Shown piece after piece: positions 703-21,397 of a stretch of 21,397 bases of DNA; position 1 is the stretch's first letter, and each line of letters starts with the position of its first letter. The position numbers were made by a program, and so were the translations under genes. The DNA is from Candidatus Iainarchaeum sp. GTDB lineage: Archaea; Iainarchaeota; Iainarchaeia; Iainarchaeales; CSSED10-239. Under the pieces are notes generated by a model. That model had not been told where the DNA came from and did no database searches. It saw only the letters and a program-made list of their open reading frames with translations. The stretch is taken from NCBI GenBank assembly GCA_003559395.1, contig PWLL01000055.1, forward strand, positions 1 through 21,397, written 5' to 3'.

Positions 703-715
703 ATCATATCACATT

Positions 716-2416: not shown

Positions 2417-2616
2417 CTCATGAAATGTCCTATATTATTATTTATTTCTCTTATTAAAATATTATAAAAATAGATATCTTATAAATAATATAAGAAAAGA
2501 AACCTTTAAATATAAATGTATTTTAAAGAAAAAGTCAACCTTTTTAAAAAAACAACAATTTATAAATTATTTGTTCTTTTCTATTATATAGATAACAAAC
2601 GATAATTTGAGAATAT

Positions 2617-5917: not shown

Positions 5918-5961
5918 AATCTACACAAATAAAAAAAAGAATTGAAAACAATTCTTTTTAA

Positions 5962-6594: not shown

Positions 6595-6736
6595 GTTTCT
6601 TCACCTTCTTTTATTTTTTTCTATATATATATTTGATTAATAATGTATTTAATTGTATTGGTTTTATAAAAAACACTCAAAAATATAAAATAACAAAAAT
6701 ATAAAATGATTTTGAAACAAAACATATATTATAACT

Positions 6737-7819
6737 ATGAACAAAAAACAATTTTATACAAATCCAAAAAACTTTGTATTTGAGAAAAACTACCCAAACC
6801 TGTCTTTAGGCCCACTAGGAAACTTCAAAAAAGAACTTACGAAAGATTCAAATCCTAGAAAATGGATAAACAAAGACTTTAATATTGTTAAAAAAGAAAA
6901 AAAAAGCCAAGTTGTTATCTATGATCACTATAACAAAAACTTAGCTAGAAAACCAAACAAACAACTAGAAAATATGCAATTGCTATCACAAGGAATAAAA
7001 TCAACAGAACTAGAAGCAAACTTTGAAACAAAAATAACCAGAGTGGTGGATGATTTTTCAGGAATTAATAACTATGGGTATCTATCAAAAGATATAAAGA
7101 TAATAGACAATATAAAAATACCTAAAATAATAGACAAAGTAGTAAACGATACAGACCTAAAAGCAACAACAGGTGTTTTAGAGATCTATAACAAAAGAAA
7201 AGACGTTTATAAGATACAAGATATATTCTCTGTCGGGCTTTTAGGCATGAAAAAAAATAGTGTTTTAGTGCCAACAAAATGGGCCATCACCTCTGTTGAC
7301 GAAATTGTTAGTAAAAATAAGATTCTTGAAAAGATTATGTTCTTTCCAATAATTGACGACTTTAGAATTTTTTTTTATCAAGCCTACAAAAATAAGTTTG
7401 TAGTTTTGTTGCTTCCAGAAAACTGGGGTTTTGAAAATATTGAAATTACAACTGATCTAGAGATTATGAAAGACTACGAAATAAATTATCCTAGAAAAAA
7501 ATATGCTTTTTCTGTCACGGGTGGATATTATGCAACCAGACTATCTGTTTGTGAATATCTTGAAACAATAAAAAAACAAGCAAGAGTAATTGTATTTCGA
7601 GAAATTGAAAAAGGATATAAATCTGAAGGAGTTTGGCTTGTTAGAGAAGCTGTAAAAAAAGCCCTGTCTAACGATGTAAAAACTTTTGAAGACTTATCTT
7701 CTGCGATTAAAGAAATTTCAAAACATTTTCTTGTAGATGTAAATGTTTATAAGAAAGAATCAAAGATACTTGAAGACTTTAAAAAACAAAAAAAGATTTC
7801 AGATTTTTGGAAAACCTAA
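6737..7819 (+). CDS. Nre-like (DUF650/DUF651, COG1602) putative DNA-repair protein
   Basis: 360 aa. The N-terminal PKNFVFEKNYPNLSLGPL resembles the conserved P.vFVGr.gYP.v.vGPl block of Nre_N as I recall it. VPTKWAITSVDE resembles the family T(R/K)WSITAVD block. A C-terminal PIP box is present. The call rests on memory of family motifs, not on a search. Confidence 0.55.
   Translation: MNKKQFYTNPKNFVFEKNYPNLSLGPLGNFKKELTKDSNPRKWINKDFNIVKKEKKSQVVIYDHYNKNLARKPNKQLENMQLLSQGIKSTELEANFETKITRVVDDFSGINNYGYLSKDIKIIDNIKIPKIIDKVVNDTDLKATTGVLEIYNKRKDVYKIQDIFSVGLLGMKKNSVLVPTKWAITSVDEIVSKNKILEKIMFFPIIDDFRIFFYQAYKNKFVVLLLPENWGFENIEITTDLEIMKDYEINYPRKKYAFSVTGGYYATRLSVCEYLETIKKQARVIVFREIEKGYKSEGVWLVREAVKKALSNDVKTFEDLSSAIKEISKHFLVDVNVYKKESKILEDFKKQKKISDFWKT
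7787..7810 (+). other. C-terminal PIP box of the Nre-like protein
   Basis: Residues 351-358 read QKKISDFW, a canonical Qxx[ILM]xx[FY][FYW] match, two residues from the C-terminus. Confidence 0.65.
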
Positions 7820-8847
7820 ACAAAAAGAATAAGACCTAAAACACAAAACAACAACTGTAAAAGTAAAATAGAGATTGTAATTTGTTTTTCTGTAAACTTT
7901 TTATCAATTATTTTTTTTGGATAGTGCATAAAAACGTGCGTCCAAGAAAAGATGCGTTTGTATGGTTTTTTAATAGTGTTGTTCTTTTGAAGATCTCCAA
8001 AACTTCTAACGCGCATCTTTCCTTTTAACTTTAAGATAAGCTCAATAAATAAAGGAATGTAAATAAAACCAGCAATAAACTCAGCACGCCCAACCAATAA
8101 CAAACTAGCAAAAGTAACACCAGAAAAATAAGTTAAAGAGTCCCCTGGCAAAACCTTTGCAGGACACCAATTAAAACATAAAAAAGCAAGAGCTGAAGCA
8201 CTTGCAACAAAAGCAAAGATGGCTAAAGAAAGATTGTTGTTTAAAAAGAAAAAAACACCCAACGTTAAAGTTAATAAAAACATTATCCCGCCTTCTAGAC
8301 CATTCGTGCCTGCAAGAAGGTTTGGAGAATTTGTAACAACCACAAAAATTAAAGGAGCTAACAAAAATGGATAAAACAACCCTAGATGAACATAACCAAA
8401 AACTGGAAATTCAAGAAAAGTATGATTAAGAACAATAAACATTATTGGAACATATGCAAACAAAGTTAAAACAGGTTTGACAAACTGTGACAATCCAACT
8501 TTGTGCTGCTTGTTTCCATAAATGCTTTTTTTAAGAGTGAGATTTATTCTAGTATCATCTATTATTCCAACTAACGTTCCTAAAAAAATAGAAGACAAAA
8601 TCAAAGTATATTGAAAAGCATGTTGATTAAAAACAAACATAGAAACAAAAATAAAAACAATAATCGTTATAAAAAAACCTAAAAAAGTAGGAATCCCTCC
8701 TGCGTTTGATACTTTTGGTTTTCCTTTCTTTTGTTGGTCTATACAAAAAAGATTATTTTTAAAAAGTAAAGGAATAAATGCTTTTACAAGAATAAACGTA
8801 AGAAAAAAAGAAAATAAAACTAAAGTTAATAATAAAAGATTGTACAT
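7816..8847 (-). CDS. Glycosyltransferase family 4 polyprenyl-phosphate HexNAc-1-phosphate transferase (AglH/Alg7/WecA-MraY-like)
   Basis: 343-aa polytopic membrane protein. Family motifs seen: GIIDDT, NLLAGTNGLEGG and PGDSLTYFSG. It lies immediately downstream of aglB on the same strand. Confidence 0.8.
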   Translation of the reverse strand: MYNLLLLTLVLFSFFLTFILVKAFIPLLFKNNLFCIDQQKKGKPKVSNAGGIPTFLGFFITIIVFIFVSMFVFNQHAFQYTLILSSIFLGTLVGIIDDTRINLTLKKSIYGNKQHKVGLSQFVKPVLTLFAYVPIMFIVLNHTFLEFPVFGYVHLGLFYPFLLAPLIFVVVTNSPNLLAGTNGLEGGIMFLLTLTLGVFFFLNNNLSLAIFAFVASASALAFLCFNWCPAKVLPGDSLTYFSGVTFASLLLVGRAEFIAGFIYIPLFIELILKLKGKMRVRSFGDLQKNNTIKKPYKRIFSWTHVFMHYPKKIIDKKFTEKQITISILLLQLLFCVLGLILFV

Positions 8848-8854
8848 GTTTATC

Positions 8855-10852
8855 TTATTTGTTAACTATATCCTTATTTACCTTAAACACCTTTACAGTC
8901 TCATGATGGAAAACTTCTTCAAAATATTTTGAAGCCTCTTCTTCTCTAAACCACATCTTTGCTAAAGTTGAATTGTTTATGGCTGAATTAAATAAATAAA
9001 AGTATTTTTTGTTTTCATCTCTATAAAAATATGTAGGAATCGATTGTATTAGTTGTGTGGGTCTATCTTGCCAAGTAGTAGAAGTGTTGACCATATCGTT
9101 ATAGTCTAAAGTACCAAAAGAACAACGATAACTTTTTTGTTGAGTAATAGATGTGCTTTGTTCATAACATCTAGAAGACCTACCATGACTGTATTTTGTA
9201 ACATTTGGATCTGAAAAGTTTCTGGCATTATATTTATATAAGGCATATGCAGAATATTTAGAAAACATTTCGTTTTCTACCATTATATAGTCGGCATCGT
9301 ATTTTCTAATAAGCTCTATACTTTCATTAAGATCAGAAGACAAAATAAATGCAGCAAAATCTCTGTTAGCTTCCTGTGAAAAATTAGTGTTATCTGTACT
9401 TGCTCTTCTTTCTGTAAAATAAGTTATCCAATGTCCATGATCCCACCAATTGAAAATCTTTGCATCCTCTGCAGCATTCTCGTTTATCCACTCAAAACTT
9501 TCTAACCATCCTAGATTTGTGTTGATTTGTGGGCGATGAATCTCTACATGGTGTGTGCCTGCAGCAATTGAAGTTATTAAAAACACAGCAATCACAAAAG
9601 TGCCTATTCTTTTTACATTTAATGATTTTTCTTTAACCCAATTAATATAAAGATAAACTAAAAAACCAGTTGCAGCAGCGATTGGCAAACCTAAATAAAA
9701 AGTAAACTTTAGTTTAGTATACGCTAGATATAAACAAACCGCAATCCACGAAAAAATTAACAACGACCTATAGTCTTTGTGATTTTTCTTAAAACCAAAC
9801 TTGTGAGGCCACAAAAGATAAATCGGAATTAATAATAAAGCTAAAAAAGGTAAAAACGTTAAAAGACTATATTTAGAAAAAAAATAAGGCCACCCTTTGT
9901 TTTCTTCACCAATAGTTATTACAGATGCATCTTCACTAGTAGATCTTCCTAAAACACGATCTATGTTTTCTTGTGAATAAGGCACATATCTTGAAGCATA
10001 TGATTGAAAAGTTCTGTGCCATATAGAACCATAAGCTAAAGATGCTACGGCCATAAACAAAATACCAACAATTACAATCATCTTTACAAAAGAACCAATC
10101 TCGTATTTTGTGGCGTTTTTATAAGCCATAAAGAAAATATTAATTACAAAATAAAAACCAACAATTAACGGAATTAATAAATAAGCACGCCAAGTAATAA
10201 TCATTAAAGAAAAAAACAAACAAGCAATAAGTGTTTGCGTAAGATGGGTTTTAGTAGCATGCATGTTTTTAGTTGCTTTTACTAAAAATATAAATCCTGC
10301 AACAAGCCATAAAAAACCAAAAGCATCTTCTTCATAGAACCCAGCCATGGTTCTATATACAAAAGCAGGGATTGTTGCAGCAACAATACCCATAACAACT
10401 CCAACTTTTTTGTTATATAGCTCTTTTCCTAAAAAATACATTAACACGGCAATAGTTGCGCCAAAGAAAGCAGGCATAACTCTTGCAAAACTCATTAATA
10501 ACCATTTATCAAAAGCAAGACCAAAAGTAAACAAAGTATATACAAACGAAACAAAATACCATAAAAACTGAGGACGATTTTTATAGATTTGATCATCTGG
10601 GCCTCTATGATAATAATAACCTAACGGGTCTCCTTCTGTAAGTTCTCCCTGTAAAGTATATTCTGTTGCTCTTAGATGCCAATAGGTATCAAACTCAAAC
10701 ATGTAGTCATATTTTAGTAGATGACTTCTTACTCCAAAACCTAAGATAAAGATTAAAACAATAATCAAAACAACCATGGTTTTTGAATCCAATAATTTGT
10801 TTAAGAAAGATTCGTTTGTTTTTGGTTCTGTTTCTTTATTTTTTGAGTCCAT
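8855..10852 (-). CDS. aglB: Archaeal oligosaccharyltransferase AglB (STT3 family)
   Basis: 665 aa with a multi-TM N-terminal half and a soluble C-terminal half. WWDHGHW is a variant of the WWDYG signature, and an early-loop acidic motif (EFDTYWH) is present. Confidence 0.9.
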   Translation of the reverse strand: MDSKNKETEPKTNESFLNKLLDSKTMVVLIIVLIFILGFGVRSHLLKYDYMFEFDTYWHLRATEYTLQGELTEGDPLGYYYHRGPDDQIYKNRPQFLWYFVSFVYTLFTFGLAFDKWLLMSFARVMPAFFGATIAVLMYFLGKELYNKKVGVVMGIVAATIPAFVYRTMAGFYEEDAFGFLWLVAGFIFLVKATKNMHATKTHLTQTLIACLFFSLMIITWRAYLLIPLIVGFYFVINIFFMAYKNATKYEIGSFVKMIVIVGILFMAVASLAYGSIWHRTFQSYASRYVPYSQENIDRVLGRSTSEDASVITIGEENKGWPYFFSKYSLLTFLPFLALLLIPIYLLWPHKFGFKKNHKDYRSLLIFSWIAVCLYLAYTKLKFTFYLGLPIAAATGFLVYLYINWVKEKSLNVKRIGTFVIAVFLITSIAAGTHHVEIHRPQINTNLGWLESFEWINENAAEDAKIFNWWDHGHWITYFTERRASTDNTNFSQEANRDFAAFILSSDLNESIELIRKYDADYIMVENEMFSKYSAYALYKYNARNFSDPNVTKYSHGRSSRCYEQSTSITQQKSYRCSFGTLDYNDMVNTSTTWQDRPTQLIQSIPTYFYRDENKKYFYLFNSAINNSTLAKMWFREEEASKYFEEVFHHETVKVFKVNKDIVNK

Positions 10853-10971
10853 TTTTTTTCACATTATATTTAATATCTATAAATAATAATGTAACAAAAC
10901 AGTTTATAAAAATAGTCTTTTTTAAAAAAGATAAATAATAAAAATATAGTTTACAAAAAAAAGAATTTTTT

Positions 10972-10989
10972 AAAAAATTAGATAAAAAT
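10972..10989 (-). terminator. Oligo-T terminator after the 5S rRNA
   Basis: The minus strand directly after the 5S 3' end reads A TTTTT ATCTAA TTTTTT. Confidence 0.5.
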
Positions 10990-11105
10990 GTTAGCAACTT
11001 AATTGAGGCTCCAAAGAAGACTTTAGCGCCAACAACTACGGAAATGAACTTAACTTCTGGGTTCGGAAAGAGACCAGGTGTTTCTTCATCCCTTTGGTCG
11101 CTAAC
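10990..11105 (-). rRNA. rrf: 5S ribosomal RNA
   Basis: The 116-nt minus-strand sequence is GUUAGCGACC...CACCUGGUCUCUUUCCGAACCCAGAAGUUAAGU...GUUGCUAAC. Its core matches the universal 5S loop B / helix III / loop C consensus (CACCUG.UC.CAUUCCGAAC.CAGAAGUUAAG). The termini pair to form helix I (GUUAGCGAC with GUUGCUAAC). The segment is a local GC-rich island in AT-rich DNA. Confidence 0.9.
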
Positions 11106-11127
11106 AATAAATATAAGCTAAGAAAAG

Positions 11128-11135
11128 TTTATAAA
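11128..11135 (-). promoter_or_regulatory. TATA box for the 5S rRNA gene
   Basis: TTTATAAA is centred about 26 nt upstream of the predicted 5S 5' end (11105), the canonical archaeal TATA-to-TSS distance. It lies in the 50-nt gap after the tbp stop codon. Confidence 0.5.
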
Positions 11136-11155
11136 GCTGTTGTTTTTAAAATAAT

Positions 11156-11695
11156 TTATATTTTTGCAGCATTTATTTTTCTTTTTAACTTTTTTAAACC
11201 TTTTAAGATATCCTCTTCTGATTTTGCACCAGCACAAATAAGTTTTCCGTTTTTAAATAATAAAACAGTTACTTTGGGGTCGTAAAGTCTTGCAATAGCA
11301 CCTGGAAATTGTTCAGGCTCATATTCAATGTTGTCTAGCTTTAAAGCAACATCAAATAAATTTAATTGTTTTGGTAAACTAGATGTCGCAACTAAGTTTA
11401 CAATCTCATATGAAACTCTGGTTTTAACTTTTACATCACTTTGTACTTCGTGAATAATATTCATAGCCTTTTTTATTGCAATTTTTATATTTCTTTCACT
11501 AGATGCACCAGAAACGATTATTTTTCCGTTTTTAAAAAGTAATAAAGACACTTTTGGTTCTGCAATCTTTAAAATAGCACCAGGAAATTGTTCAGGCTCA
11601 TATTCTACTTCTGGAACCGCTGTTGCTAAGTTGTATAGATCAAGAGTCGCATTTAGGTTACTAGAAGCAACCAAATTTACAATTTTATATTCCAT
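11156..11695 (-). CDS. tbp: TATA-box binding protein (TBP)
   Basis: Two tandem TBP repeats are present, each with NLVA(S/T)S...EYEPEQFPGAI...LLFKNGK(I/L)I. The ORF track begins at a GTG (11704). I prefer the ATG at 11693-11695 (MEYKIVNLVAS), which has a GGTG 9 nt upstream. TAA stop. Confidence 0.93.
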   Translation of the reverse strand: MEYKIVNLVASSNLNATLDLYNLATAVPEVEYEPEQFPGAILKIAEPKVSLLLFKNGKIIVSGASSERNIKIAIKKAMNIIHEVQSDVKVKTRVSYEIVNLVATSSLPKQLNLFDVALKLDNIEYEPEQFPGAIARLYDPKVTVLLFKNGKLICAGAKSEEDILKGLKKLKRKINAAKI

Positions 11696-11775
11696 TTTGT
11701 TCACACCATTTTTATATGTTATATTTAAATCTTATTCTTTTTTATTGATGATATATATACTATACTAAAACAAAA

Positions 11776-11787
11776 CCTTTATAAAGG
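11776..11787. promoter_or_regulatory. Perfectly palindromic TATA element CCTTTATAAAGG in the tbp / rpl21e divergent spacer
   Basis: A 12-nt perfect palindrome centred on TTTATAAA, roughly 85 nt upstream of the tbp ATG. Orientation and target gene cannot be assigned from sequence alone. Confidence 0.3.
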
Positions 11788-11958
11788 GATTTTTATTATA
11801 TAAAAACGTTTATCTTTTTTAAGAAAAAAATCACGGTTTATAAAAAACACTTAAAAACACAAAAATAAAAGGAAAACAAACAAAAAACAACGATAATGAT
11901 TGATAATGTTTTGCGAAATATAAACCTATTTAAACATTTACTAACATATATTATTTTA

Positions 11959-11967
11959 TTTATAAAA
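11959..11967 (+). promoter_or_regulatory. Candidate TATA box for the rpl21e-rpoF-DUF655-ksgA operon
   Basis: TTTATAAAA is centred about 33 nt upstream of the rpl21e ATG (11996), implying a very short leader. An AGGA lies 8 nt upstream of the ATG. Confidence 0.4.
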
Positions 11968-11995
11968 CACAAAAAAATATAAAAAGGAAATAAAT

Positions 11996-12313
11996 ATGTC
12001 AAATAAAAAAGCAATCGGAAAAAGATCAAGAACAAGAAGAAAATTTAAAAGAAAAGTTAGAGAAAAAACAACTGTTAATGAAATTTTAAAAACAGTTGAA
12101 TTAAATGATGTGGTGCAAATAAATGTGAACAGTTCAGTACATGCAGGACTACCACACTCAAGAGCACAAGGCAAAACAGGCGTGGTTATTGGATTTCAAG
12201 GAAAATGTCCAATAATACAAATAAAAGACGGAAACAAGCCTAAAAAAATCATTACACAAAACGTTCATCTAAAAGTTTTAAAACAAATACCAAAGGTGGA
12301 AAAAAATGAGTAA
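11996..12313 (+). CDS. rpl21e: 50S ribosomal protein L21e
   Basis: 105 aa with a basic N-terminus (GKRSRTRRKFKRKVREK). The core VHAGLPHSRAQGKTGVVIG is typical of eL21. It is the first gene of the conserved archaeal rpl21e-rpoF-DUF655-ksgA string. Confidence 0.9.
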   Translation: MSNKKAIGKRSRTRRKFKRKVREKTTVNEILKTVELNDVVQINVNSSVHAGLPHSRAQGKTGVVIGFQGKCPIIQIKDGNKPKKIITQNVHLKVLKQIPKVEKNE

Positions 12314-12389
12314 AAAAATAGAATATGTAGAAGAAGTACCATTAATAGAAATAAAAAGAATACTTTTAGAAAAGAAAAAAACCAAATAA
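12306..12389 (+). CDS. rpoF: RNA polymerase subunit Rpo4/F, N-terminal fragment (27 codons, ends at an in-frame TAA)
   Basis: The ATG overlaps the rpl21e stop (ATGAGTAA). The product MSKKIEYVEEVPLIEIKRILLEKKKTK matches the N-terminal helix of Rpo4/F (compare Sulfolobus YIVEEHYIPYSVAKKLL as I recall it). A TAA at 12387-12389 is in the same frame as ORF 12408..12632. Confidence 0.6.
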   Translation: MSKKIEYVEEVPLIEIKRILLEKKKTK

Positions 12390-12407
12390 TTAAACTATGA
12401 ACAAAAA

Positions 12408-12632
12408 ATGGCTTACGAACATGCAAAAATGTTTACAAACATAACGCCTGCAAAAGCAAAAAAACTACAAGAAGAGTTATTAAGTCTAGATCTTACACCA
12501 GAAGTAATAACAACAATAATAGATGTTCTACCAAACAAATATCAACTAGATTTGATTGCAGAAAAAAACAAAAGCATAACTGATGAAAATAAAGAACAAA
12601 TTATAGAACTTATAGAAAAAAATAAAAAATAA
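12408..12632 (+). CDS. rpoF: RNA polymerase subunit Rpo4/F, C-terminal portion (74 aa from the first ATG after the in-frame stop)
   Basis: MAYEHAKMFTNITPAKAKKLQEEL...VITTIIDVLP matches the Rpo4/F HRDC-like body. Read through the stop, the junction is TK*LNYEQKMAYEHAKMF, which matches the conserved (S/T)YEQK.A.EHA block. Gene order also supports the call. Confidence 0.85.
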   Translation: MAYEHAKMFTNITPAKAKKLQEELLSLDLTPEVITTIIDVLPNKYQLDLIAEKNKSITDENKEQIIELIEKNKK

Positions 12633-12639
12633 AGAAAAT

Positions 12640-13164
12640 ATGAAAGAAGCAATTGTTTTAGACAAAACCAAAAAAGAAAGACAATATAGACAAATTTCAA
12701 TCATACAATGTATAGGATCATCAAATTTCTCTTTGTTAGAGATAACTGGAGAAGAAAAAGTAAAGATTCAAGAAAAAATATCAACAGAAGATCAAAATGT
12801 AAAAAGAATAACTTATAATAAACTAACGTCAATTGCAAAAAAAGAACTAGAAAAAGCAATCGAAACAATTGTTCTAGAAAATAAAGAAAAATTTGTTAAC
12901 TTTTTTAATAATGCTAAACCAATAGGTACAAGAAGACACCAACTAGACCTATTACCACTAATTGGAAAAAAACATAGAATGGCTATTCTTGAACATTTAA
13001 ACAAAAAAGGCAAATTTACTAGTTTTGATGATTTTAAACAAATAACCATGATGCCTGATCCAGTGCATGTTATCGTAGAAAGAATAATCGAAGAAATCAT
13101 GAACGAAACGGAAGAAAAACATCATCTGTTCACTATGCCCTTTCTTAAAAAAAGACAATTTTGA
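12640..13164 (+). CDS. DUF655 (COG1491) putative nucleic-acid-binding protein
   Basis: 174 aa. FSLLEI, RITYNKLTSIAKKELE, FVNFFNNAKPIGTRRHQLDLLPLIGKKH and the MMPDP region match DUF655 conserved blocks. The protein always follows rpoF in archaea. Confidence 0.85.
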   Translation: MKEAIVLDKTKKERQYRQISIIQCIGSSNFSLLEITGEEKVKIQEKISTEDQNVKRITYNKLTSIAKKELEKAIETIVLENKEKFVNFFNNAKPIGTRRHQLDLLPLIGKKHRMAILEHLNKKGKFTSFDDFKQITMMPDPVHVIVERIIEEIMNETEEKHHLFTMPFLKKRQF

Positions 13165-13952
13165 AAAACATGCAAGATCTACTTTATTCTCAAATGTTAA
13201 GACATAACTTTAAACCAAATATAAAACTAGATCAACATTTTATTATTAATAAAAAAATTATTGAAGAAGTTGTTTCTTTATTAAACCTAAATAAAAAAGA
13301 CGTTGTTCTAGAAGTTGGGCCAGGAACAGGATTTTTAACCAAAGAAATAAATCAAAAAGTAAAAAAAACAATCGTTATTGAAAAAGACAAAAAAATGGTG
13401 GAAGTTTTAAAATACGAAAACGATCTTAAAAATACAGAAATAATAAACAAAGATTTTTTAGAAGTAAAAATTGATGAAGAAGTTAACAAGATTGTTAGTT
13501 TTGTACCATACTCTATATCTCAAGAATTTATTTATAAGATAAACAACAAAGCCTATGCAGTTCTGGTTTTACAAAAAGAATTTTCAGAAAAACTAATTGC
13601 AATTGAAGGTTGTGAAAACTATAACGCAGTTTCTGTTCTTGCACAATATTATGGAGATATAAAAATTGTTAAAAAAATATCAAAAGGAAGTTTTTTTCCT
13701 AAACCTAGTTGTGAATCATCAATAGTTGTTATTACGCCTAAAAAAATAGAATTTTCTGAAAGTTTTAATAAGTTTGTAAAAACAATCTTTAGATATTCTA
13801 AAAAAAACTTAACCAAAGCACTAATTCTATCATTAGAAGAAACTAATATTAAAAAAGAAAATATAAAAAACATAAAAAAAGAAATACTAATAACAAAAGT
13901 AAAACAACTAACACCTAAACAACTTAAAAAAATATACGAACAAGTTAGTTGA
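13161..13952 (+). CDS. rsmA: 16S rRNA (adenine-N6,N6)-dimethyltransferase KsgA/RsmA/Dim1
   Basis: 263 aa with the SAM-binding motif VLEVGPGTGFLT, the N-terminal LDQHFIINKKII (the QnFL equivalent) and PKPSCESSIV. The ORF-track start is a TTG overlapping the upstream TGA. An in-frame ATG at 13170 is an alternative start. Confidence 0.9.
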   Translation: MKNMQDLLYSQMLRHNFKPNIKLDQHFIINKKIIEEVVSLLNLNKKDVVLEVGPGTGFLTKEINQKVKKTIVIEKDKKMVEVLKYENDLKNTEIINKDFLEVKIDEEVNKIVSFVPYSISQEFIYKINNKAYAVLVLQKEFSEKLIAIEGCENYNAVSVLAQYYGDIKIVKKISKGSFFPKPSCESSIVVITPKKIEFSESFNKFVKTIFRYSKKNLTKALILSLEETNIKKENIKNIKKEILITKVKQLTPKQLKKIYEQVS

Positions 13953-15456
13953 ATTCTTTAACAATTATTTTTTTAAAAGTTATTAAATCATTTAAAGTTT
14001 TTTGAGAATAATTGTAGGCATAATCTAATCTTGTTTCTGAATCTGAATGAATCTCAAAGACAGGCTCGTTTTTCTTTACTTCATGACCAACAGGCTTTAA
14101 GATAAACACACCAGCAAGAACGTCTGTTGGAGCACCAGCAAACTTTGCAACTTGTGTAAGCTTAAATACATCCATATCTATCATATTTCCTTCTTCAGGA
14201 GATAAGATTTGTTTTACATACTTTGCTTTTGGTACATCTTCTGATCTTGTTATTTTTCCACCCTGTGCTTTTATAATCTTTATAAACGTGTTTAGTGCCT
14301 GTTTGTTTTCAATAGTTTTTTTTGCAAGATGATAGCCTTCATTCTTTTTTGCACGACCCACAAGTTCTAAAAGTTCTCCAGCAAGCTCACATGACTTTTC
14401 TGCAAGATTATCGAAATATTTCCCTTCTAGAATCTCTAAAACCGCTTTTGCCTCCAAAGAACAACCAAAAGAATTTCCACAAGGAGTTTTTCCATCCGTG
14501 ATTAAAACTTTTGTTTTTATTCCTAAATCCTTTGAAATTATTAAAAACTTTTTAGCAAGTCTTTCAGCATCCTCTGGATTTTTTATTTTCGTCTGTTCTC
14601 CAACTGGGATATCTATTATCAAATGAGTAGACCCAATACTTTTTTTCTTAGAAAGGATCGAAGCCACCATGATTCCTTCCGGATTAATACCAAGAGCATG
14701 CTCAATATCTATTAGTCTATTATCAACAGGACATAGATCAAACTTACCCTCCCAAACAACAACTCCGTTTGTTTTAGAGATAATGTTTTTTATCTCAGCA
14801 ACATTAAAACTAACAGGCGCTAAGATTTCCATAGCATCTGCAGTGCCTGTTGCAGAAGTTATTGATCGTGATGCTGTTTTTGGTATTTTATATCCAAAAG
14901 AAGCAATAATTGGAGTAACAATCATAGAAACTCTTCCATTAATGCCACCAATAGAATGTTTGTCCAAGATAACTTCATCATCAAAATCTAATCTATCACC
15001 AATATCAACTAAAGCATTACATAAAGCAGTAGTTTCTTCTAAACTAAGATCATTAATCTGACAAGCAGTAACAAAACCAGCAAGCTCAACTTCAGACAAA
15101 GAATTTTTATTAATATCTGCAACAATCTCAATTATTTGATCTTTAGACAACGGTTTGTTTTTTATTTTATTAAAAATATATTTGTTTGCAGCAGAAGGAG
15201 ATAAAAGACAAACATCTACAAGCTCTCCTTCTTTAAGATTAAACTCTTCTGCAGTATCTTTAAAAACACCAATACTTTCTTCATCTACATAAACAGAAGA
15301 AGTATCTAAAACAAATACCTGGTTAAAATCAGTTTTTTTAATATCTATTCTGTCTAAGTTGTGTGCACTAATCTTTTTTGCAGTTTTTGGATGCAAGATA
15401 GATACAGAATAGTTTGCGTAAATATCAAGTATTTTTATTTTTAATTTTAAATACAT
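13945..15456 (-). CDS. deoA: AMP phosphorylase (archaeal thymidine-phosphorylase family, DeoA-type)
   Basis: 503 aa, the length characteristic of archaeal AMP phosphorylases with their extra N-terminal domain. Family blocks present: HSIGGINGRVS, SRSITSATGTAD and the C-terminal alpha/beta domain. Confidence 0.85.
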   Translation of the reverse strand: MYLKLKIKILDIYANYSVSILHPKTAKKISAHNLDRIDIKKTDFNQVFVLDTSSVYVDEESIGVFKDTAEEFNLKEGELVDVCLLSPSAANKYIFNKIKNKPLSKDQIIEIVADINKNSLSEVELAGFVTACQINDLSLEETTALCNALVDIGDRLDFDDEVILDKHSIGGINGRVSMIVTPIIASFGYKIPKTASRSITSATGTADAMEILAPVSFNVAEIKNIISKTNGVVVWEGKFDLCPVDNRLIDIEHALGINPEGIMVASILSKKKSIGSTHLIIDIPVGEQTKIKNPEDAERLAKKFLIISKDLGIKTKVLITDGKTPCGNSFGCSLEAKAVLEILEGKYFDNLAEKSCELAGELLELVGRAKKNEGYHLAKKTIENKQALNTFIKIIKAQGGKITRSEDVPKAKYVKQILSPEEGNMIDMDVFKLTQVAKFAGAPTDVLAGVFILKPVGHEVKKNEPVFEIHSDSETRLDYAYNYSQKTLNDLITFKKIIVKEFN

Positions 15457-15460
15457 AAAA

Positions 15461-15778
15461 TCACTTATTTTTATTTAAATTTTCTTGAAGAAGTTTTTTA
15501 GGAATTGCACCTGTTTGTTGATCAACAAGTAGACCATCTTTAAAGATAGCGATCGTCGGAATGGATAAAACGTTATATTTTTCTGCAGTTTTGTGCGCTT
15601 CATCAATATTAACTTTAACACAAGAAACCTCTTGGTTATCATTTGCAAAATCCTCAAAGATAGACGCAAACATTTGACAGGGGGCACACCAGTCTGCCCA
15701 AAAATCAACAACCACAAGCGGGTTGTTTTTTATATGTTCTTCAAAAGTATCATCGTTAAGATTTTTTATATCGGACAT
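15461..15778 (-). CDS. trxA: Thioredoxin
   Basis: 105 aa. The active site is FWADWCAPCQ (CAPC rather than CGPC), and the SIPT cis-Pro loop is present. A GAGGT lies 8 nt upstream of the ATG. Confidence 0.9.
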   Translation of the reverse strand: MSDIKNLNDDTFEEHIKNNPLVVVDFWADWCAPCQMFASIFEDFANDNQEVSCVKVNIDEAHKTAEKYNVLSIPTIAIFKDGLLVDQQTGAIPKKLLQENLNKNK

Positions 15779-15855
15779 GTTTTTTACCTCTTTAAAATAA
15801 ATATTCTTGCTCTCTATTAATAAAATATATCAAAAGGTTATTAATAAGTATTGTT

Positions 15856-16653
15856 TTATACAAAAACTAAAACTAAATAAATAAAACCCAAGATATAACA
15901 AAACACAGCAAAATTTATTTTCTCTACAACTTTTAATAAAATATCAATAGTAAAATAACCAACCACAAAAGAAACAAAAATAGAAACTAATAAAAAAACA
16001 TTAAAAGAAGAAATGCCATTTAAAATAACATACGCAAGTTCTGCAATAATAACAGTAGGAACAGATAATAAAAAACTATACTTTAAAGCATCCTTTGGAG
16101 AAAACTTTTTAAAAACTAAAGCAGAAGTTGTTATTCCTGATCTGCTTATGCCAGGAAAAATTGCAAAACTCTGTAAAAAACCAACAAAGATTGCAGATTT
16201 TGTGGTTAGTTTTTTTTGAACATTTTTTTTATTTTTTGTATAGCTTTGTATTAGACCTGTAACAATTAATAACAAAGCAACAACTAAAGTAATCGCTTTA
16301 ATACTTAATAAAGTCATACTCTTATAAACAAAATAAAGTGCAGAAAACATAAGAATCGTAACAAAAACAGAGATAATAATGAATCTTAGTTCTTTTGTTT
16401 TTTTTGTATCTTTAAAAACGTTTCTTAAATTGTTGTAAGAAAATAAACTAAACAAATATTTTCTAAAATAAACAACTGCAGAAAAAACAGTACCAATATG
16501 TAAATAAACAGAATAGTCTAATGCTAAAGAAACAGGAACATCTAAAACATTAGTAAGAAAAATTATTAAATTTCCTTGTGAGCTTATTGGTAACCACTCG
16601 ATGACTCCTTGAAGAACACCAATAAAAACATACTGTAAAAATTGTGTAAACAT
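15856..16653 (-). CDS. uppP: Undecaprenyl/polyprenyl-diphosphate phosphatase (UppP/BacA family)
   Basis: 265-aa polytopic membrane protein with motif 1 EWLPISSQGN and motif 2 FPGISRSGITTS. Confidence 0.88.
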   Translation of the reverse strand: MFTQFLQYVFIGVLQGVIEWLPISSQGNLIIFLTNVLDVPVSLALDYSVYLHIGTVFSAVVYFRKYLFSLFSYNNLRNVFKDTKKTKELRFIIISVFVTILMFSALYFVYKSMTLLSIKAITLVVALLLIVTGLIQSYTKNKKNVQKKLTTKSAIFVGFLQSFAIFPGISRSGITTSALVFKKFSPKDALKYSFLLSVPTVIIAELAYVILNGISSFNVFLLVSIFVSFVVGYFTIDILLKVVEKINFAVFCYILGFIYLVLVFV

Positions 16654-16735
16654 TTTTAAAAACCAATTATTTTATATTGTTTAACCTTATATATATTTAT
16701 AGAGCTATACATTTATAAAATAAAACGAAAAAACT

Positions 16736-17184: not shown

Positions 17185-18135
17185 CTATTTTTTAGAAAGA
17201 AGAACAGCAAACATCATTATAACAATAATTACAATTAATATAGTTTTTAGATTTAATTGACCAATATCAGATAAATTACCTAAACTAAAAAAACCAGAAA
17301 TATTTAAAAAAGAATCATTTGGGTCTTCAGAAACTTCATCTTCAAAAACATTATCTAAAAAAATAAAAACAGAAATTGGTTTTAAATGATAAGATTCATA
17401 TTTGTCTTTTGCAAAACAATTAATAATGTGTTTTTCTGTAAATTGTTCTTGTTTATCTAATGAAACATGCAGTTTGTTTTTTCCTTCAACTCCTCTAGTT
17501 ATTTTTGTTTTAAGGTTTTCTGAAGTTTCACATACTAAACTATAGTGATCATATTCATAAGAATCAATTAAAAAATCAACATCAACTATAAAAACTTGAT
17601 TAATATCTGTAAACTCTATAACTCTATCAGATAAAGTATATCCTAAAAATCGAGGTTTTCTTCCTGTTTTTGTTAAATAATCAATTTCTTCATTATTTGC
17701 TTTAAAATAAAAATATTTCTTTTGAATATCTAAAAGATTATCAAACTCATCAAACAAACTAAAAGTTAAAACAACTCTTGTTGTTTTGTTTTGATAATTG
17801 TTTGGGTTTGCTGTTAGTGAAAAAGAAATGTTTGGGTTTTCTCTAAAGAAAAGTTTGTTGTTAGATGTTGTAAAACTTATGTTAGAAGAAGAATCTAAAG
17901 AATCTAAATCTACAGTTATATATGGTTCTTGCATTTGGTTAAGACCTTGTTTTTTGTAAGAAGTATTAATATTAAAGAAAATCTCTTTAGAAGCATTCTT
18001 AGAGATGTAGAAAATGTTTTCTTGATCAGCTTGAGTTTGTTGAGTAATATTTAAAGAATACGCATAAACATTACTTACGAATAAACAAAAAGCAAAAATC
18101 ATAAATATTTTTGAAAAAATTATAAATTGTTTCAT
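17185..18135 (-). CDS. Secreted, C-terminally membrane-anchored surface protein (hypothetical)
   Basis: 316 aa. It has an N-terminal Sec-type signal (MKQFIIFSKIFMIFAFCLFVSNVYA/YS) and a C-terminal TM helix with a basic tail (ILIVIIVIMMFAVLLSKK). Nine N-x-S/T sequons are present. No family is recognised. Confidence 0.7.
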   Translation of the reverse strand: MKQFIIFSKIFMIFAFCLFVSNVYAYSLNITQQTQADQENIFYISKNASKEIFFNINTSYKKQGLNQMQEPYITVDLDSLDSSSNISFTTSNNKLFFRENPNISFSLTANPNNYQNKTTRVVLTFSLFDEFDNLLDIQKKYFYFKANNEEIDYLTKTGRKPRFLGYTLSDRVIEFTDINQVFIVDVDFLIDSYEYDHYSLVCETSENLKTKITRGVEGKNKLHVSLDKQEQFTEKHIINCFAKDKYESYHLKPISVFIFLDNVFEDEVSEDPNDSFLNISGFFSLGNLSDIGQLNLKTILIVIIVIMMFAVLLSKK

Positions 18136-18198
18136 AGTTGTTCACTAAATAATTTAGTTTAGTTACTTTATTTAAATATATGCTTTTTGGAAAAATAA

Positions 18199-18285
18199 CG
18201 CAAGGGATGGGATTCGAACCCATGGACAAGAAAACTTGTCACTTGGTTTCGAGCCAAGCACTTTCGACCACTCAGTCACCCTTGC
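18199..18285 (-). tRNA. tRNA-Ser (anticodon CGA), class II with long variable arm
   Basis: The minus strand folds as acceptor GCAAGGG/CCCUUGC, 3-bp D stem ACU/AGU, and anticodon stem CUUGG/CCAAG with loop CUCGAAA. The variable arm is ACAAG-UUUU-CUUGU, the T arm AUGGG-UUCGAAU-CCCAU, and the discriminator G. No CCA is encoded and no intron is present. Confidence 0.9.
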
Positions 18286-18575
18286 AAAGAAGAGTTTATT
18301 GATTCTAACAAAAGAGCTAAAATCTCATAAGCTTCTTCTTTTGTAGACACTCTAACAATAATCTTAAGATTGTTAAAAATAGTTGTTTCACCAAACTTAC
18401 TCTTAATAATAACAAAAAAAGGAGAACTATCTTTTTCTAGATATATGTTTTTGTGTTTTATAGATTTTACAAAACTATCTAAATCGACTTTTGTAGATCT
18501 TCTACACAAAAACTCAAAACCAGGTGTTGCAACACACGGATCTAAGATAAAATCATCTTTGCTTAGTTGCTTCAT
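18276..18575 (-). CDS. Hypothetical 99-aa protein, coupled to the upstream HerA-like ATPase gene
   Basis: The ATG has a GGAG 6 nt upstream and starts 18 nt after the ATPase TAG. The sequence looks like a small alpha/beta domain (…FFVIIKSKFGETTIFNNLKIIVRVSTKEEAYEILALL…). The TGA stop lies 10 nt inside the tRNA-Ser 5' end. No family is recognised. Confidence 0.6.
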   Translation of the reverse strand: MKQLSKDDFILDPCVATPGFEFLCRRSTKVDLDSFVKSIKHKNIYLEKDSSPFFVIIKSKFGETTIFNNLKIIVRVSTKEEAYEILALLLESINSSLQG

Positions 18576-18593
18576 AAACTACTCCATAAACAC

Positions 18594-21206
18594 CTATAAC
18601 AACATGCCCAAAACAGCATCTACAACAACTACTCTTTCCTTAAAATTACTATCCACAAAAACTATATGCCAAACAGGCCAATAAATCTCATCAACAGAAG
18701 TAATTTCTATATCTGCCCATAACCTCTCTAAAAGAGAAGTTATCTTCTCAGAAGAAACTTTTGAATCAACTATGTTGTTAAAAGAAAGTTGTTTTTTAGT
18801 TTGTGGCAAATCATTTAAAGACTCAAGAATCTTATGTTCTGGATTGTAAGGAAGATCAAAGTTTTTAGAAAGCCTATAAACTTCAACATCATGTTTTACA
18901 GAAACATCTAAGATCTTTTTTTCTTTAAACAAAGAAATATTTTTTTTAAGTTCTTCTTCAGACAAATTAACTTCTTGTGTTAAAGAATAGACGGTACTTT
19001 GTTTTTTAAGAAGTTTTAACAAATAAAGTTGTTCATCAGAAAAAACATCAACAAGCAACAACCCTTTAGAAAACTTAAAAGAATCACCTGTAAAATGAAC
19101 AAACTCTTTTTTCATAGAATCAACATAACACGTTTTTTTTCTAAAATGTTCTTCTGAAGAATAGTGATTGTAAGCAAGCTTGTATATTCTACTATGTTTT
19201 ATAAAAGAATCATTTATACTTTCTTTTTGTTTTACAAAAAATAATTTTTTAGGAATTGTTTTTCTTGCAATATTTTCTGCAATCTCTCTGGAGATTCTTT
19301 GAGGAAGGCAATGACAGATTTCTTGTTCTTCTTTAGGAGGAATTATATCTTCAATTTCTTTTTCTAAAGAAACATCTTCTTTGCCTTTATTTTCTAAAGC
19401 CTCAACCTGTTCCTTAATCACATCTATGTCTTTTTCAGAAACTTTAGGTGTTGTTTTTGAAAAAAACAACAAACCATCTTTAAGCACAACATCATTTTCT
19501 CTTAATTTTTGTAAAATTTTCTTCCAAGAAACAGATTTGTGGTATTTTATGTTTACAACATCTAGTATGTCTTTTGCATAATGCTCTTTAATCTGTGTTG
19601 ATTTCTCAATCTTAGAGATTATAAGAACGGTTGCTTTATCAATAATCTCTTCTTCACTAAGATCATCTACAACTCTGATAGTCTCTGTATCTCTTCCTTC
19701 ATGTTGACTTAACCTTGGTTTTACTTTTAAAATAAAAGCTCTTGAAGTTTCTTCACAACGATCACCAACAAGCGCAACACCAACAGGCAAAGTTTTTATG
19801 AAGTTTGGTTTTTTATATTCTTCTGGAATTATTGCAGGCATTCTCTTATGAATCGCATTAATATCATCATTAAAAACAAGCTTATGACTTATAAAAATAT
19901 CAACTTGTGATAAGACTTTGTTATTTATAGCAGAAGGTTGTTGTGTTGCAAAAACTAAAGAACAACCAGGACGTCTTCCTTGTTTAACATACTCAATAAT
20001 AGATGCAGTTGCTGGAGTTTGTGTGTTTCCAGAAGGAATCAGAGTGTGTGCTTCATCAATATACAACCATGTTGGTGGAATCTCAATCTCTAGTAGAAGA
20101 TCAGGATTTTGTTCTGCAGAATCTAGTTTTTTAACAGCATCTTGTCTAGTTACTAGTTTTCTTGCAGATAAGATTCTTCTAGCAAGTATGCCTATAACCA
20201 AAGCAGTTATATTATCGTCCAAAAAACTAGTGTCCAAGATAGTGAGTTGTTTTTCTCTTGCAAGTTTAGTTAATGGAGTTCCATGATCACTAAAAATACC
20301 CCAGGACTTAGCAGCTTCAAATCTTGAAACTAATGCTCTTATTGAATCTGGCTTATATCCTTTTTGAGAAGACTTATAATCAATATTGTTTCTTAAACAA
20401 AAAATAATGTCCTCTAAAGTAAACTGAGACCCCTTAGGCAAGATTTCTTTTAGTTCTGCATCTGTTTTTTCATCACCTGCAACATATCCATCACTTACAA
20501 AAGTTAAAGTTTTTTCAAGTAAAAGACCAGTAGGACTAAAACGATCAATTCCAAAAGTTAAACACCAATCTTCAACATTCAAAAGTGAAGGATACAAAGA
20601 AAAGGTTTCATCATACGTTTCTTTAGAAATTTGATTTGCAACACCCTCAGGCACAAAAACTTTAAGGTTCTTTAAACCTTTTGGTTCTAGATTCCACTCT
20701 TTTAAAATTTCAAGCTCTTTTTTTTCTTTATTAGGATATTTCATAGACCAAAAAACACCAACAGGATCAACAACAATCTGACCAATATAGTCGTTTGTTT
20801 GTGCAAGTTCTTCAGCAATAACTCCTAGACCATAACTTTTTCCAGAACCCCTAGAACCATCAATAAAAACAACGTGTGGGTTAAGTCCATCAAGTCTTAC
20901 TTTTTGATTAAGTTTATCTTCTTCAACTACTTTTCCTAAAAAAGCACTTGCTTTTTTTCCATATTGTTTAAGCACTGATTTTTTTCTACCAATATAAACA
21001 AAAGAAGCATCATCTAGATCTTCAAGAAACTTAAGAGACGGTTTTATTTTGTTTTCTGGTTTTGCTGTTTCGTTTTTTTTTAGATTGTGATTTGGGATAT
21101 AGGTCTCTTGATCTTCTGTTTCTGAAGAATCTTTATTATCTTCTGTATTTTCTTTAAAATCATCAACTAGATCTTTTCCATTCGAAGTATATTTTTTTAC
21201 AGTCAT
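18594..21206 (-). CDS. HerA/FtsK-superfamily (DUF87-like) P-loop ATPase with long C-terminal wHTH-containing extension
   Basis: 870 aa. Walker A is GSRGSGKS (nt 20835-20858) and Walker B is WLYIDEAH (DE within nt 20046-20066). The HerA-type block GRRPGCSLVFATQQPSAINNKVLSQVDIFISHKL is present. The N-terminal ~65 aa are charged and low-complexity. Residues ~510-870 are unassigned, and no TM segments are evident. Confidence 0.85.
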   Translation of the reverse strand: MTVKKYTSNGKDLVDDFKENTEDNKDSSETEDQETYIPNHNLKKNETAKPENKIKPSLKFLEDLDDASFVYIGRKKSVLKQYGKKASAFLGKVVEEDKLNQKVRLDGLNPHVVFIDGSRGSGKSYGLGVIAEELAQTNDYIGQIVVDPVGVFWSMKYPNKEKKELEILKEWNLEPKGLKNLKVFVPEGVANQISKETYDETFSLYPSLLNVEDWCLTFGIDRFSPTGLLLEKTLTFVSDGYVAGDEKTDAELKEILPKGSQFTLEDIIFCLRNNIDYKSSQKGYKPDSIRALVSRFEAAKSWGIFSDHGTPLTKLAREKQLTILDTSFLDDNITALVIGILARRILSARKLVTRQDAVKKLDSAEQNPDLLLEIEIPPTWLYIDEAHTLIPSGNTQTPATASIIEYVKQGRRPGCSLVFATQQPSAINNKVLSQVDIFISHKLVFNDDINAIHKRMPAIIPEEYKKPNFIKTLPVGVALVGDRCEETSRAFILKVKPRLSQHEGRDTETIRVVDDLSEEEIIDKATVLIISKIEKSTQIKEHYAKDILDVVNIKYHKSVSWKKILQKLRENDVVLKDGLLFFSKTTPKVSEKDIDVIKEQVEALENKGKEDVSLEKEIEDIIPPKEEQEICHCLPQRISREIAENIARKTIPKKLFFVKQKESINDSFIKHSRIYKLAYNHYSSEEHFRKKTCYVDSMKKEFVHFTGDSFKFSKGLLLVDVFSDEQLYLLKLLKKQSTVYSLTQEVNLSEEELKKNISLFKEKKILDVSVKHDVEVYRLSKNFDLPYNPEHKILESLNDLPQTKKQLSFNNIVDSKVSSEKITSLLERLWADIEITSVDEIYWPVWHIVFVDSNFKERVVVVDAVLGMLL

Positions 21207-21295: not shown

Positions 21296-21310
21296 AAAAA
21301 AAAGAAAAAA
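21296..21310 (-). terminator. Oligo-T terminator after tRNA-Ser(UGA)
   Basis: The minus strand immediately 3' of the tRNA reads TTTTTT C TTTTTTTT. Confidence 0.5.
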
Positions 21311-21393
21311 CGCAGAGGACGAGATTTGAACTCGCGTAGTCGTAAGACTCCAGGTCTCAAGCCTGGTGCGTTTGACCGCTCCGCCACCTCTGC
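21311..21393 (-). tRNA. tRNA-Ser (anticodon UGA), class II
   Basis: The minus strand folds as acceptor GCAGAGG/CCUCUGC, D stem GCG/CGC, and anticodon stem CCAGG/CCUGG with loop CUUGAGA. It has a 14-nt variable arm, T arm GCGAG-UUCAAAU-CUCGU and discriminator G. No CCA is encoded. Confidence 0.88.
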
Positions 21394-21397
21394 AAAA

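Follow-up and report, generated by a model that had tools for sequence, protein, structure and literature searches.

A HerA/FtsK-superfamily ATPase lacking a HAS-barrel and its adjacent single TBP-domain protein in Iainarchaeota

What would a DNA-motor-type ATPase and a small protein encoded directly behind it do together in an archaeon of the phylum Iainarchaeota? The question is raised by a locus of Candidatus Iainarchaeum sp. (assembly GCA_003559395.1, contig PWLL01000055.1), of which positions 1 to 21,397 were analyzed; this whole stretch of 21,397 nucleotides (nt) is referred to as the window. Its minus strand carries a gene for an ATPase of 870 amino acids (aa), and 18 nt separate the stop codon of this gene from the ATG of another, which encodes a protein of 99 aa. 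An earlier note, made from the sequence alone, had proposed an orphan HerA/FtsK-type ATPase coupled to a 99-aa unknown protein. The layout that it gave (two open reading frames (ORFs), the 18-nt gap, a GGAG of the small gene's own, and the run of that gene into a tRNA-Ser gene) was borne out by the ORF list, the sequence and ARAGORN. The two descriptions were not: the ATPase belongs to a large family that is conserved over its full length across Iainarchaeota, and the small protein is, as judged by sequence profiles, an AlphaFold 2 (AF2) model and Foldseek, a single (monopartite) TBP domain.

18594..21206, minus strand: ATPase gene, 870 aa (ORF list; whole ORF including the TAG stop at 18594-18596)
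18276..18575, minus strand: 99-aa monopartite TBP-domain gene (ORF list; ATG at 18573-18575)
18582-18585, minus strand: GGAG, 6 nt before the ATG of the small ORF (direct sequence reading)

The ATPase is placed by its sequence among the HerA/FtsK-superfamily P-loop ATPases, in agreement with the earlier note. The Pfam DUF87/HerA central domain (PF01935) covers residues 90-345 with 54.4 bits against a cut-off of 23.2 (E 2.4e-14) and is matched by all 18 aligned homologs; HerA_C (PF05872) matches residues 376-481 weakly and partially (22.7 bits, cut-off 22). The core and its diagnostic blocks were located as follows.

19677..21035, minus strand: P-loop ATPase core, residues 58-510 (DUF87, HerA_C and mad8 matches; many invariant alignment columns)
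20835..20858, minus strand: Walker A, GSRGSGKS, residues 117-124 (motif position; invariant columns)
20046..20069, minus strand: Walker B block, WLYIDEAH, residues 380-387, with DEAH at 384-387 (aligns with Walker B of the solved HerA 8xau)
19932..19985, minus strand: KQGRRPGCSLVFATQQPS block, residues 408-425, arginine-finger and sensor region (invariant columns)

The KQGRRPGCSLVFATQQPS block aligns with KEGRKYGVTLLLASQRPS of HerA 8xau; within it GRRPG, the arginine-finger block, occupies residues 410-414 and TQQPS residues 421-425. Walker A, Walker B, GRRPG and TQQPS all fall in invariant columns of the 18-sequence alignment, in which dozens of invariant residues are spread over residues 58-510 and the tail is conserved but more divergent. 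The best 19-residue Kyte-Doolittle window, with a value of 1.34, lies inside the core, so that no transmembrane (TM) helix is predicted. Only about 30 residues (58-89) lie between the disordered head of the protein and the DUF87 match; this space is too short for a HAS-barrel, and from the sequence none should be present. The absence of both features had been noticed earlier and is upheld here.

Within the superfamily the ATPase stands apart from each of the known groups. Like the archaeal HerA of the HerA-NurA-Mre11-Rad50 system, it belongs to the DUF87 superfamily with conserved Walker A, Walker B and arginine-finger blocks and, by analogy, would probably share a hexameric double-stranded DNA motor. 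It differs in having no HAS-barrel and no NurA or Mre11 neighbors, and archaeal HerA in turn is without its disordered N-terminal head and its 360-aa tail containing a winged helix-turn-helix (wHTH) domain and PepSY-type modules. The NCBIfam archaeal HerA models NF040819 and NF040937 gave 29.9 and 32.8 bits against cut-offs of 970 and 800, with only residues ~314-448 aligned. Neither in the window nor in the gene tables of ten related loci (L001-L005, L086-L090) was nurA, mre11 or rad50 found, the sole exception being a Rad50-like gene 4.8 kb off in L090; the missing NurA partner had also been remarked on in the earlier note. A canonical archaeal HerA was thus rejected on three counts, namely the lack of a HAS-barrel, scores far below the equivalog cut-offs and the lack of a nurA/mre11/rad50 operon. 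FtsK/SpoIIIE belongs to the same superfamily and is likewise a DNA motor with a winged-helix DNA-recognition domain, but the ATPase is without its N-terminal membrane domain and has an internal wHTH of ArsR/MarR/TrmB type set between PepSY-type modules. No Pfam match to FtsK_SpoIIIE or FtsK_gamma was obtained at E<=1, and FtsK/SpoIIIE proper was rejected for want of a membrane domain and of an FtsK_SpoIIIE profile match and because of the internal position of the wHTH. The profile of the DUF853/YjgR-type HerA-like NTPases (HerA_C, PF05872) matches the core and in some homologs also the first module after it; the match to the window's ATPase is the weak and partial one given above, and DUF853 proteins are themselves uncharacterized.

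The regions flanking the core were resolved into six parts.

21036..21206, minus strand: N-terminal head, residues 1-57 (short conserved motif, then charged low-complexity spacer)
19461..19655, minus strand: three helices and a beta-hairpin, residues ~518-582 (AF2; winged-helix-like topology, without database confirmation)
19332..19454, minus strand: acidic disordered linker, residues 585-625 (predicted local distance difference test (pLDDT) <50; 29% D+E; length varies among homologs)
19068..19325, minus strand: helix and beta-sheet module, residues ~628-713 (PepSY-like by AF2 topology only)
18870..19061, minus strand: wHTH of ArsR/MarR/TrmB type, residues ~716-779 (profile, Foldseek, Pfam in homologs)
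18597..18833, minus strand: C-terminal PepSY-type module, residues ~792-870 (Pfam PepSY in homologs; AF2 topology)

The head (23% D+E, 18% K+R and 18% hydrophobic residues) opens with the motif K11-D12-L13-V14-D15-D16-F17 (consensus ~D-L-F-D-D-V-F-G-L), in which D12 is nearly invariant among homologs. The acidic and basic disordered spacer following the motif ranges from ~0 to 250 aa among homologs, the motif itself being retained. Residues 1-17 (window positions 21156-21206, minus strand) resemble a docking peptide on a tether.

The tail (residues 505-870) was modeled by AF2 from a 15-sequence alignment with a mean pLDDT of 83.9. Its wHTH at residues ~716-779 is confirmed: positions 215-292 of the tail profile match AdcR, HlyU, SmtB and ZitR in a PDB profile search (E ~1e-3), the top Foldseek matches of the tail are HlyU, CzrA and BigR (probability 1.0, TMt ~0.6), and Pfam TrmB or HTH_27 is found above cut-off in homologs P0078 and P0084. 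The C-terminal extension therefore has the winged-helix DNA-binding potential ascribed to it in the earlier note, which had called it wHTH-rich; that part of the claim holds for one confirmed wHTH, and the remainder of the tail consists of one winged-helix-like module, PepSY-type modules and the disordered linker. The winged-helix-like module (H14-32, H37-51, H57-66, E69-72 and E75-78 in the numbering of the model; pLDDT ~88-93) corresponds to a region which, in homolog P0078, is covered by a HerA_C/DUF853 match (458-680) extending ~150-170 residues beyond the ATPase core. The module at ~628-713 (E124-129, H136-144, E159-178, E184-192 and E198-209; pLDDT >90) had no PDB match listed when the 366-residue tail was submitted to Foldseek, the top 50 matches being all wHTH, and for this reason the beta modules of the tail received no structural annotation. 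At the extreme C-terminus, PepSY (PF03413) was detected in homolog P0109 (residues 803-858/859; 29.1 bits, cut-off 24) and above cut-off in P0084 (26.4 bits), the window's ATPase itself lying below the cut-off; the corresponding module at ~792-870 is modeled as a helix with long beta-hairpins (pLDDT >90), a topology compatible with PepSY. The combination of a HAS-less core, a tethered N-terminal peptide and a wHTH between two modules of putative PepSY type appears to be an architecture new for the HerA/FtsK superfamily.

The 99-aa protein alone gave no Pfam match, and a single-sequence search returned three relatives besides itself. Its false appearance as an orphan comes from that single-sequence search; profile searches were needed to recognize it. 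Two syntenic orthologs, in L002 (24.8 bits) and L030 (26.6 bits), pass the Pfam TBP cut-off (PF00352, 22.9 bits). A 44-sequence profile of the small protein matches the Methanocaldococcus jannaschii TBP structure 2z8u with an E-value of 1.2e-7, and the other 34 PDB matches listed are, with few exceptions, TBPs too. The same profile recovers the window's own two-repeat TBP, with E 1.4e-5 by hidden Markov model (HMM) and E 2.7e-5 over 81 columns by hhalign.

11156-11704, minus strand: bona fide two-repeat TBP (Pfam TBP E 8.6e-52; same window as the monopartite gene)

The AF2 model of the 99-aa protein (pLDDT 87.6) has the order E-E-H-E-E-E-H, as in a TBP repeat, and its PDB matches in Foldseek are nearly all TBPs (probability 0.97-1.0, TMq ~0.6, ~85 columns); the weak Foldseek E-values (0.06-0.5) are due to the small size of the domain. 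The protein shares with TBP the fold and the signature ('PF' and 'lF-SGK' strands, C-terminal helix) at ~15-23% identity and has one repeat where TBP has two (~180 aa). In the HMMER alignment to 2z8u, Phe is paired with Phe at 'PF' (P52-F53) and at 'lF-SGK' (F66). F53 and F66 we take to be the DNA-kinking Phe positions, by comparison with F99 and F116 of yeast TBP. The small genes in syntenic position in more distant relatives align with the 99-aa protein; in this alignment C14 and E21 never vary, and F22 and A82 hardly do. Cys14 and Glu21-Phe22 lie in the N-terminal strands and set this family apart from TBP.

An exhaustive profile search yielded 360 cluster representatives of the small protein at E<=1e-3. 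The best 150 of these are 59-152 aa long, and none of them is a fusion with the ATPase, so that there is no Rosetta-stone evidence for the pair. More than 700 homologs of the ATPase, and 360 representatives and a confident AF2 model for the small protein, show that both genes are genuine. Single TBP domains of ~91-97 aa that stand alone, are distinct from the two-repeat TBP and have no known function are described from Thermococcales (Brindefalk 2013, PMC3597702). On the description given in that paper, the 99-aa protein resembles them in being a stand-alone single TBP domain; the section devoted to them mentions no ATPase link (PMC3597702), whereas the 99-aa gene is near-coupled to that of a HerA-like ATPase.

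For the study of linkage, loci in which the ATPase is at least 55% identical to that of the window were taken as the close clade and those with 43-48% identity as the deeper clade. In the close clade the TBP-domain gene lies directly downstream of the ATPase gene in 22 of 23 loci, the two being separated or overlapping by a few bases. Approached from the ATPase, the deeper clade has it adjacent in L005, L030, L076 and L081 and 1.5 kb off in L037. A narrower small-protein alignment used as the query for loci returned eight metagenome loci. Approached from the TBP-domain gene, the ATPase gene is adjacent in L086, L088, L090, L091 and L098 and 2.4 kb off in L087. Adjacent pairs, close and deep, are spaced by -7 to +35 nt. 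In the deep loci with adjacent genes the ATPase is only ~45% and the TBP-domain protein only ~20% identical to that of the window, and adjacency retained in several deep sub-clades at such distances points to a functional link that dates back to an ancestor and has been severed repeatedly. The link between the two genes is real, although not obligatory, and does not look accidental; non-conservation of the neighborhood, which the earlier note had named as evidence against its pair, was not what the comparison of homologous loci gave. The single close-clade locus without the TBP-domain gene, L009 (~2958-3600), has a 213-aa ORF 5 nt past the ATPase stop that is not recognized by the TBP-domain HMM.

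The distribution of the ATPase was taken from a search of 5.8 billion proteins, which gave more than 700 matches. The best 120, on which coverage and identity are based, are 43-76% identical to the query and cover 61-100% of it (nearly all at least 87%); they come from records labeled 'archaeon', Diapherotrites or Iainarchaeum and bear generic names ('ATP-binding protein', 'DUF87 domain-containing', 'HerA-like ATPase', in some cases 'DUF853 family protein'). In GTDB species genomes 222 matches were found. The best 80 of these are mostly titled Iainarchaeum, Forterrea, Diapherotrites or 'archaeon', with one Micrarchaeota and three bacterial titles, and include two closed genomes, those of Ca. 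Forterrea multitransposorum and of an Iainarchaeum, both of the phylum Iainarchaeota. Three GTDB contigs with an archaeal ATPase gene (L026, L042, L051) are filed as metagenome-assembled genomes of Falkowbacteria, Chloroflexi and Peregrinibacteria, names which are probably binning errors.

Across deep clades the ATPase is still 43-47% identical, and with its dozens of invariant residues and a P-loop intein in some genomes it is among the best-conserved large proteins of Iainarchaeota. The intein (Intein_splicing plus LAGLIDADG_3) was found in two homologs of the ATPase, those encoded at 1-3517 of L087 and 671-4984 of L088. According to the extein alignments its junction, GARGSGK|C in L088, lies directly after the Walker A lysine, between the equivalents of K123 and S124. 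Such an insertion in the P-loop is typical of highly conserved proteins.

The genes around the pair are those of a core chromosome. Over positions 1-16700 of the window they include L11, Spt5/NusG, FtsZ, an aIF-2B-like protein, PolB (family-B DNA polymerase), Nre, a glycosyltransferase, AglB/STT3, TBP and L21e. Genes for YdjM, BacA, thioredoxin and an AMP-phosphorylase-like protein are syntenic in relatives. No phage homolog of the ATPase was found by tblastn against the INPHARED set; its matches among PHROG families (a family of unknown function, terminase, Zot) are weak and confined to the core, and the small protein has no PHROG match. Plasmid matches by tblastn are distant and likewise restricted to the core. 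A viral or plasmid origin of the ATPase was rejected on these grounds. The ATPase looks vertically inherited in a core-genome context rather than like a defense or mobile gene, and the earlier suggestion of a defense or mobile-DNA module is disfavored by this context and mode of inheritance, by the lack of phage matches and by the P-loop intein of some homologs.

What the pair does is answered here tentatively, with slightly less than even confidence: it may be a soluble hexameric double-stranded DNA motor for chromosome maintenance, made by ancestral, vertically inherited housekeeping genes of Iainarchaeota. By analogy with its superfamily, the ATPase would form a hexameric ring tracking along double-stranded DNA. 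Its wHTH and the TBP-domain partner would guide it on DNA, with the winged-helix-like module as a further targeting or regulatory part, and the PepSY-type modules together with the tethered N-terminal peptide may serve regulation or recruitment. The monopartite TBP domain would most likely form a dimer shaped like the saddle of TBP, able to bind or bend DNA, and could interact with the motor as its loader, specificity factor or substrate-presenting partner. The cellular role would lie in chromosome segregation, resolution or repair, and not in defense. Knowledge of the role of the ATPase would fill a gap in the understanding of chromosome maintenance and segregation in genome-reduced DPANN archaea, which lack FtsK. 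Across the lineage, moreover, a stand-alone TBP domain near-coupled (18-nt gap) to a DNA-motor ATPase provides a concrete and testable partner.

No description of the ATPase family or of its pairing with a TBP domain was found in the literature; the parts come from known superfamilies, and the architecture and the partnership appear to be undescribed. A bolder version of the proposal, which we consider rather unlikely, is that the monopartite TBP domain, probably as a homodimeric 'proto-TBP' saddle, serves a ring translocase as a DNA-binding partner dedicated to it, the two forming an unrecognized archaeal chromosome-handling machine. This machine could be an analog of FtsK or of partition systems in DPANN archaea that divide by FtsZ, or a Mot1-like remodeler of complexes between TBP-domain proteins and DNA. 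If true, this would give stand-alone TBP domains their first functional context and would be a living case in which a TBP domain functions in something other than the initiation of transcription.

Several points weigh against a chromosome-maintenance motor with a TBP-domain partner. PepSY-type modules are not typical DNA-handling domains. In about 50 of the 54 deeper-clade loci that could be judged, no TBP-domain gene turned up in iterated HMM searches at 4 kb or less from the ATPase gene, so that universal adjacency of the pair is ruled out, and in L089, L092, L094 and L097 the TBP-domain gene is unlinked to an ATPase gene. From the deep-clade non-adjacency and the stand-alone TBP-domain genes it follows that the partnership is not obligatorily in cis and could be loose. 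The nearest relative seen outside Iainarchaeota, a 389-aa HAS-less DUF87 ATPase on plasmid NZ_CP098519.1 of Haloplanus sp. HW8-1 (L102, 114950-117258; 30% identity over residues 89-504, E 1e-42), sits in a defense-like island with BREX-ATPase, PD-(D/E)XK and helicase genes. Its gene overlaps an upstream gene for a 380-aa protein with a weak PglZ-like match, and the plasmid protein looks like a defense-type relative of the ATPase core. Finally, TBP-domain folds also occur in roles other than DNA-related ones, an example being the N-domain of AlkA-type glycosylases (Brindefalk 2013, PMC3597702).

A special case of the chromosome-maintenance motor is an FtsK-like motor coupled to cell division, in which the N-terminal peptide would tether the ATPase to the FtsZ/SepF divisome so that septal DNA is cleared or resolved; this is held to be unlikely. 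The HerA/FtsK core is combined with a DNA-binding wHTH, and divisome-binding peptides typically have the arrangement seen at the N-terminus, a conserved motif carried by a disordered tether of variable length. The organism divides by FtsZ, with ftsZ in the window and SepF in the syntenic L001. Orientation or the recognition of sites would come from the wHTH and the TBP-domain protein, in functional analogy to FtsK-gamma with KOPS, an elaboration equally unlikely. The wHTH is, however, internal and not a terminal gamma domain, the ATPase is without a TM anchor, neither an Xer recombinase nor a dif-like element was noticed in the vicinity, and ftsZ lies ~16 kb off in the window in a linkage that is not conserved. 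Since Pfam gave no FtsK_SpoIIIE match, the protein would at best be an analog of FtsK rather than a copy.

Alternatively, and with quite low probability, the ring ATPase might load, remove or redistribute DNA-bound TBP-domain proteins (its partner or TBP itself) as a transcription-factor remodeler, a reading by analogy with the eukaryotic Mot1/BTAF1. The idea draws on a partner that is a TBP-domain protein keeping the DNA-kinking Phe positions, on the transcription-regulator-type wHTH of the ATPase and on a genome of ~28% G+C, in which TATA-like sites would be abundant. HerA/FtsK ATPases are nevertheless not known as transcription-factor remodelers, Mot1 being a Swi2/Snf2 enzyme, nor were tbp, tfb or the genes of RNA polymerase seen in linkage.

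A defense or mobile-element module is highly improbable. In it, as in Sir2-HerA, DUF4297-HerA or MADS, invading DNA would be sensed by the ATPase, with the small protein as its effector or adaptor. Such a module is suggested by the sequence matches of the core, the best of which, in the PDB and in PADLOC, are bacterial defense HerAs (Sir2-HerA and DUF4297-HerA; 8xau, 8wiv, 9c1m) and mad8, and by the haloarchaeal plasmid relative among BREX-, PglZ- and PD-(D/E)XK-like genes. The PDB and PADLOC matches are confined to the P-loop core and span only the Walker B-to-sensor region, with the exception of mad8, a 314-position HAS-less profile whose positions 5-309 align to residues 89-505; mad8 and the Haloplanus ATPase share the HAS-less minimal core with this part of the ATPase. 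The NCBIfam HerA_antiphage models gave 33-40 bits against cut-offs of 800-850. As the earlier note had already observed for the window, no Sir2, DUF4297 or nuclease effector adjoins the ATPase gene in any examined locus. The ATPase has other C-terminal modules and another partner than the defense HerAs, no toxic or enzymatic activity is known for the TBP domain, phage matches are lacking and PHROG matches weak. A defense-type HerA was rejected on its scores below cut-off, the missing effector and the phylum-wide, not patchy, occurrence of the gene in syntenic housekeeping neighborhoods, and the explanation is largely refuted by this distribution and context.

Just as little credence is given to a membrane-associated motor for DNA import or export, of Ced/Ted or VirB4 type, with a channel formed by small membrane proteins encoded nearby, which would be useful to a host-dependent DPANN cell. 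Several deeper-clade loci are ordered ATPase gene, TBP-domain gene and then a gene for a conserved ~110-aa two-TM protein (DUF3566-like), and in the Ced system two-TM proteins likewise accompany an ATPase, one of VirB4/HerA-like kind (PMC9905601). Against it, no conserved multi-TM channel (CedA/VirB6-like) or pilin gene is found nearby, the clade of the window does not have the two-TM gene, and the ATPase has neither a TM segment nor a match to the VirB4/CagE Pfam families. Chance adjacency or a spurious small ORF, to which the three homologs from a single-sequence search and the lack of a Pfam match of its own might have pointed, is already refuted by the 360 profile-search representatives, the confident AF2 model and adjacency at -7 to +35 nt in 22 of 23 close and at least nine deep-clade loci.

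In deeper clades the gene for the two-TM protein (~110 aa; weak Pfam DUF3566) stands directly after the TBP-domain gene and completes a three-gene array.

L005, 8519-8869: DUF3566-like two-TM gene
L076, ~4523-4885: DUF3566-like two-TM gene
L086, 5949-6275: DUF3566-like two-TM gene
L087, 6335-6676: DUF3566-like two-TM gene
L088, 5365-5706: DUF3566-like two-TM gene
L090, 5347-5670: DUF3566-like two-TM gene
L098, ~3058-3384: DUF3566-like two-TM gene

More distant monopartite TBP-domain proteins of 88-91 aa, from other uncultured archaea, adjoin no ATPase.

L099, 3945-5276: distant monopartite gene, directly after FEN1/XPG
L100 and L101, 4400-5267: distant monopartite genes, after a CDP-alcohol phosphatidyltransferase gene

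By synteny with L001, the window also contains genes for DUF655, rRNA adenine dimethylase, an AMP-phosphorylase-like protein, thioredoxin, BacA and YdjM. Downstream of the tRNA gene that follows the pair lies a 316-aa ORF (17185-18135, minus strand) which, as judged by eye, is hydrophobic towards both termini and rich in Asn and Ser in between; its syntenic counterparts in L001, L002 and L004 have 297-314 aa and no Pfam match on record. The product is probably a surface or membrane protein.

The pair is bracketed by two tRNA-Ser genes, and tRNA-Ser isoacceptors (UGA, GGA, CGA) cluster near the locus in many relatives.

18198..18286, minus strand: tRNA-Ser(CGA) (ARAGORN; covers the final 11 nt of the TBP-domain ORF)
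21310..21394, minus strand: tRNA-Ser(UGA) (ARAGORN; upstream of the ATPase gene)

The TBP-domain ORF ends (LQG*, the three last codons and the stop) within the 5' acceptor stem of the tRNA-Ser(CGA) gene, at 18276-18286 on the minus strand. An overlap of 10-11 nt between this ORF and tRNA-Ser is kept in at least nine loci (the window, L001, L002, L004, L006, L007, L011, L019 and L022), with the following coordinates in three of the relatives.

L001, 8950-8960: overlap of TBP-domain ORF and tRNA-Ser
L002, 7912-7921: overlap of TBP-domain ORF and tRNA-Ser
L004, 7936-7945: overlap of TBP-domain ORF and tRNA-Ser

Cleavage of a co-transcript by RNase P would strip the stop codon from the mRNA, which hints at coupled expression or processing. 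With the stop codon of a small gene placed, and conserved, inside a tRNA gene, the locus offers a minor but uncommon instance of mRNA-tRNA coupling.

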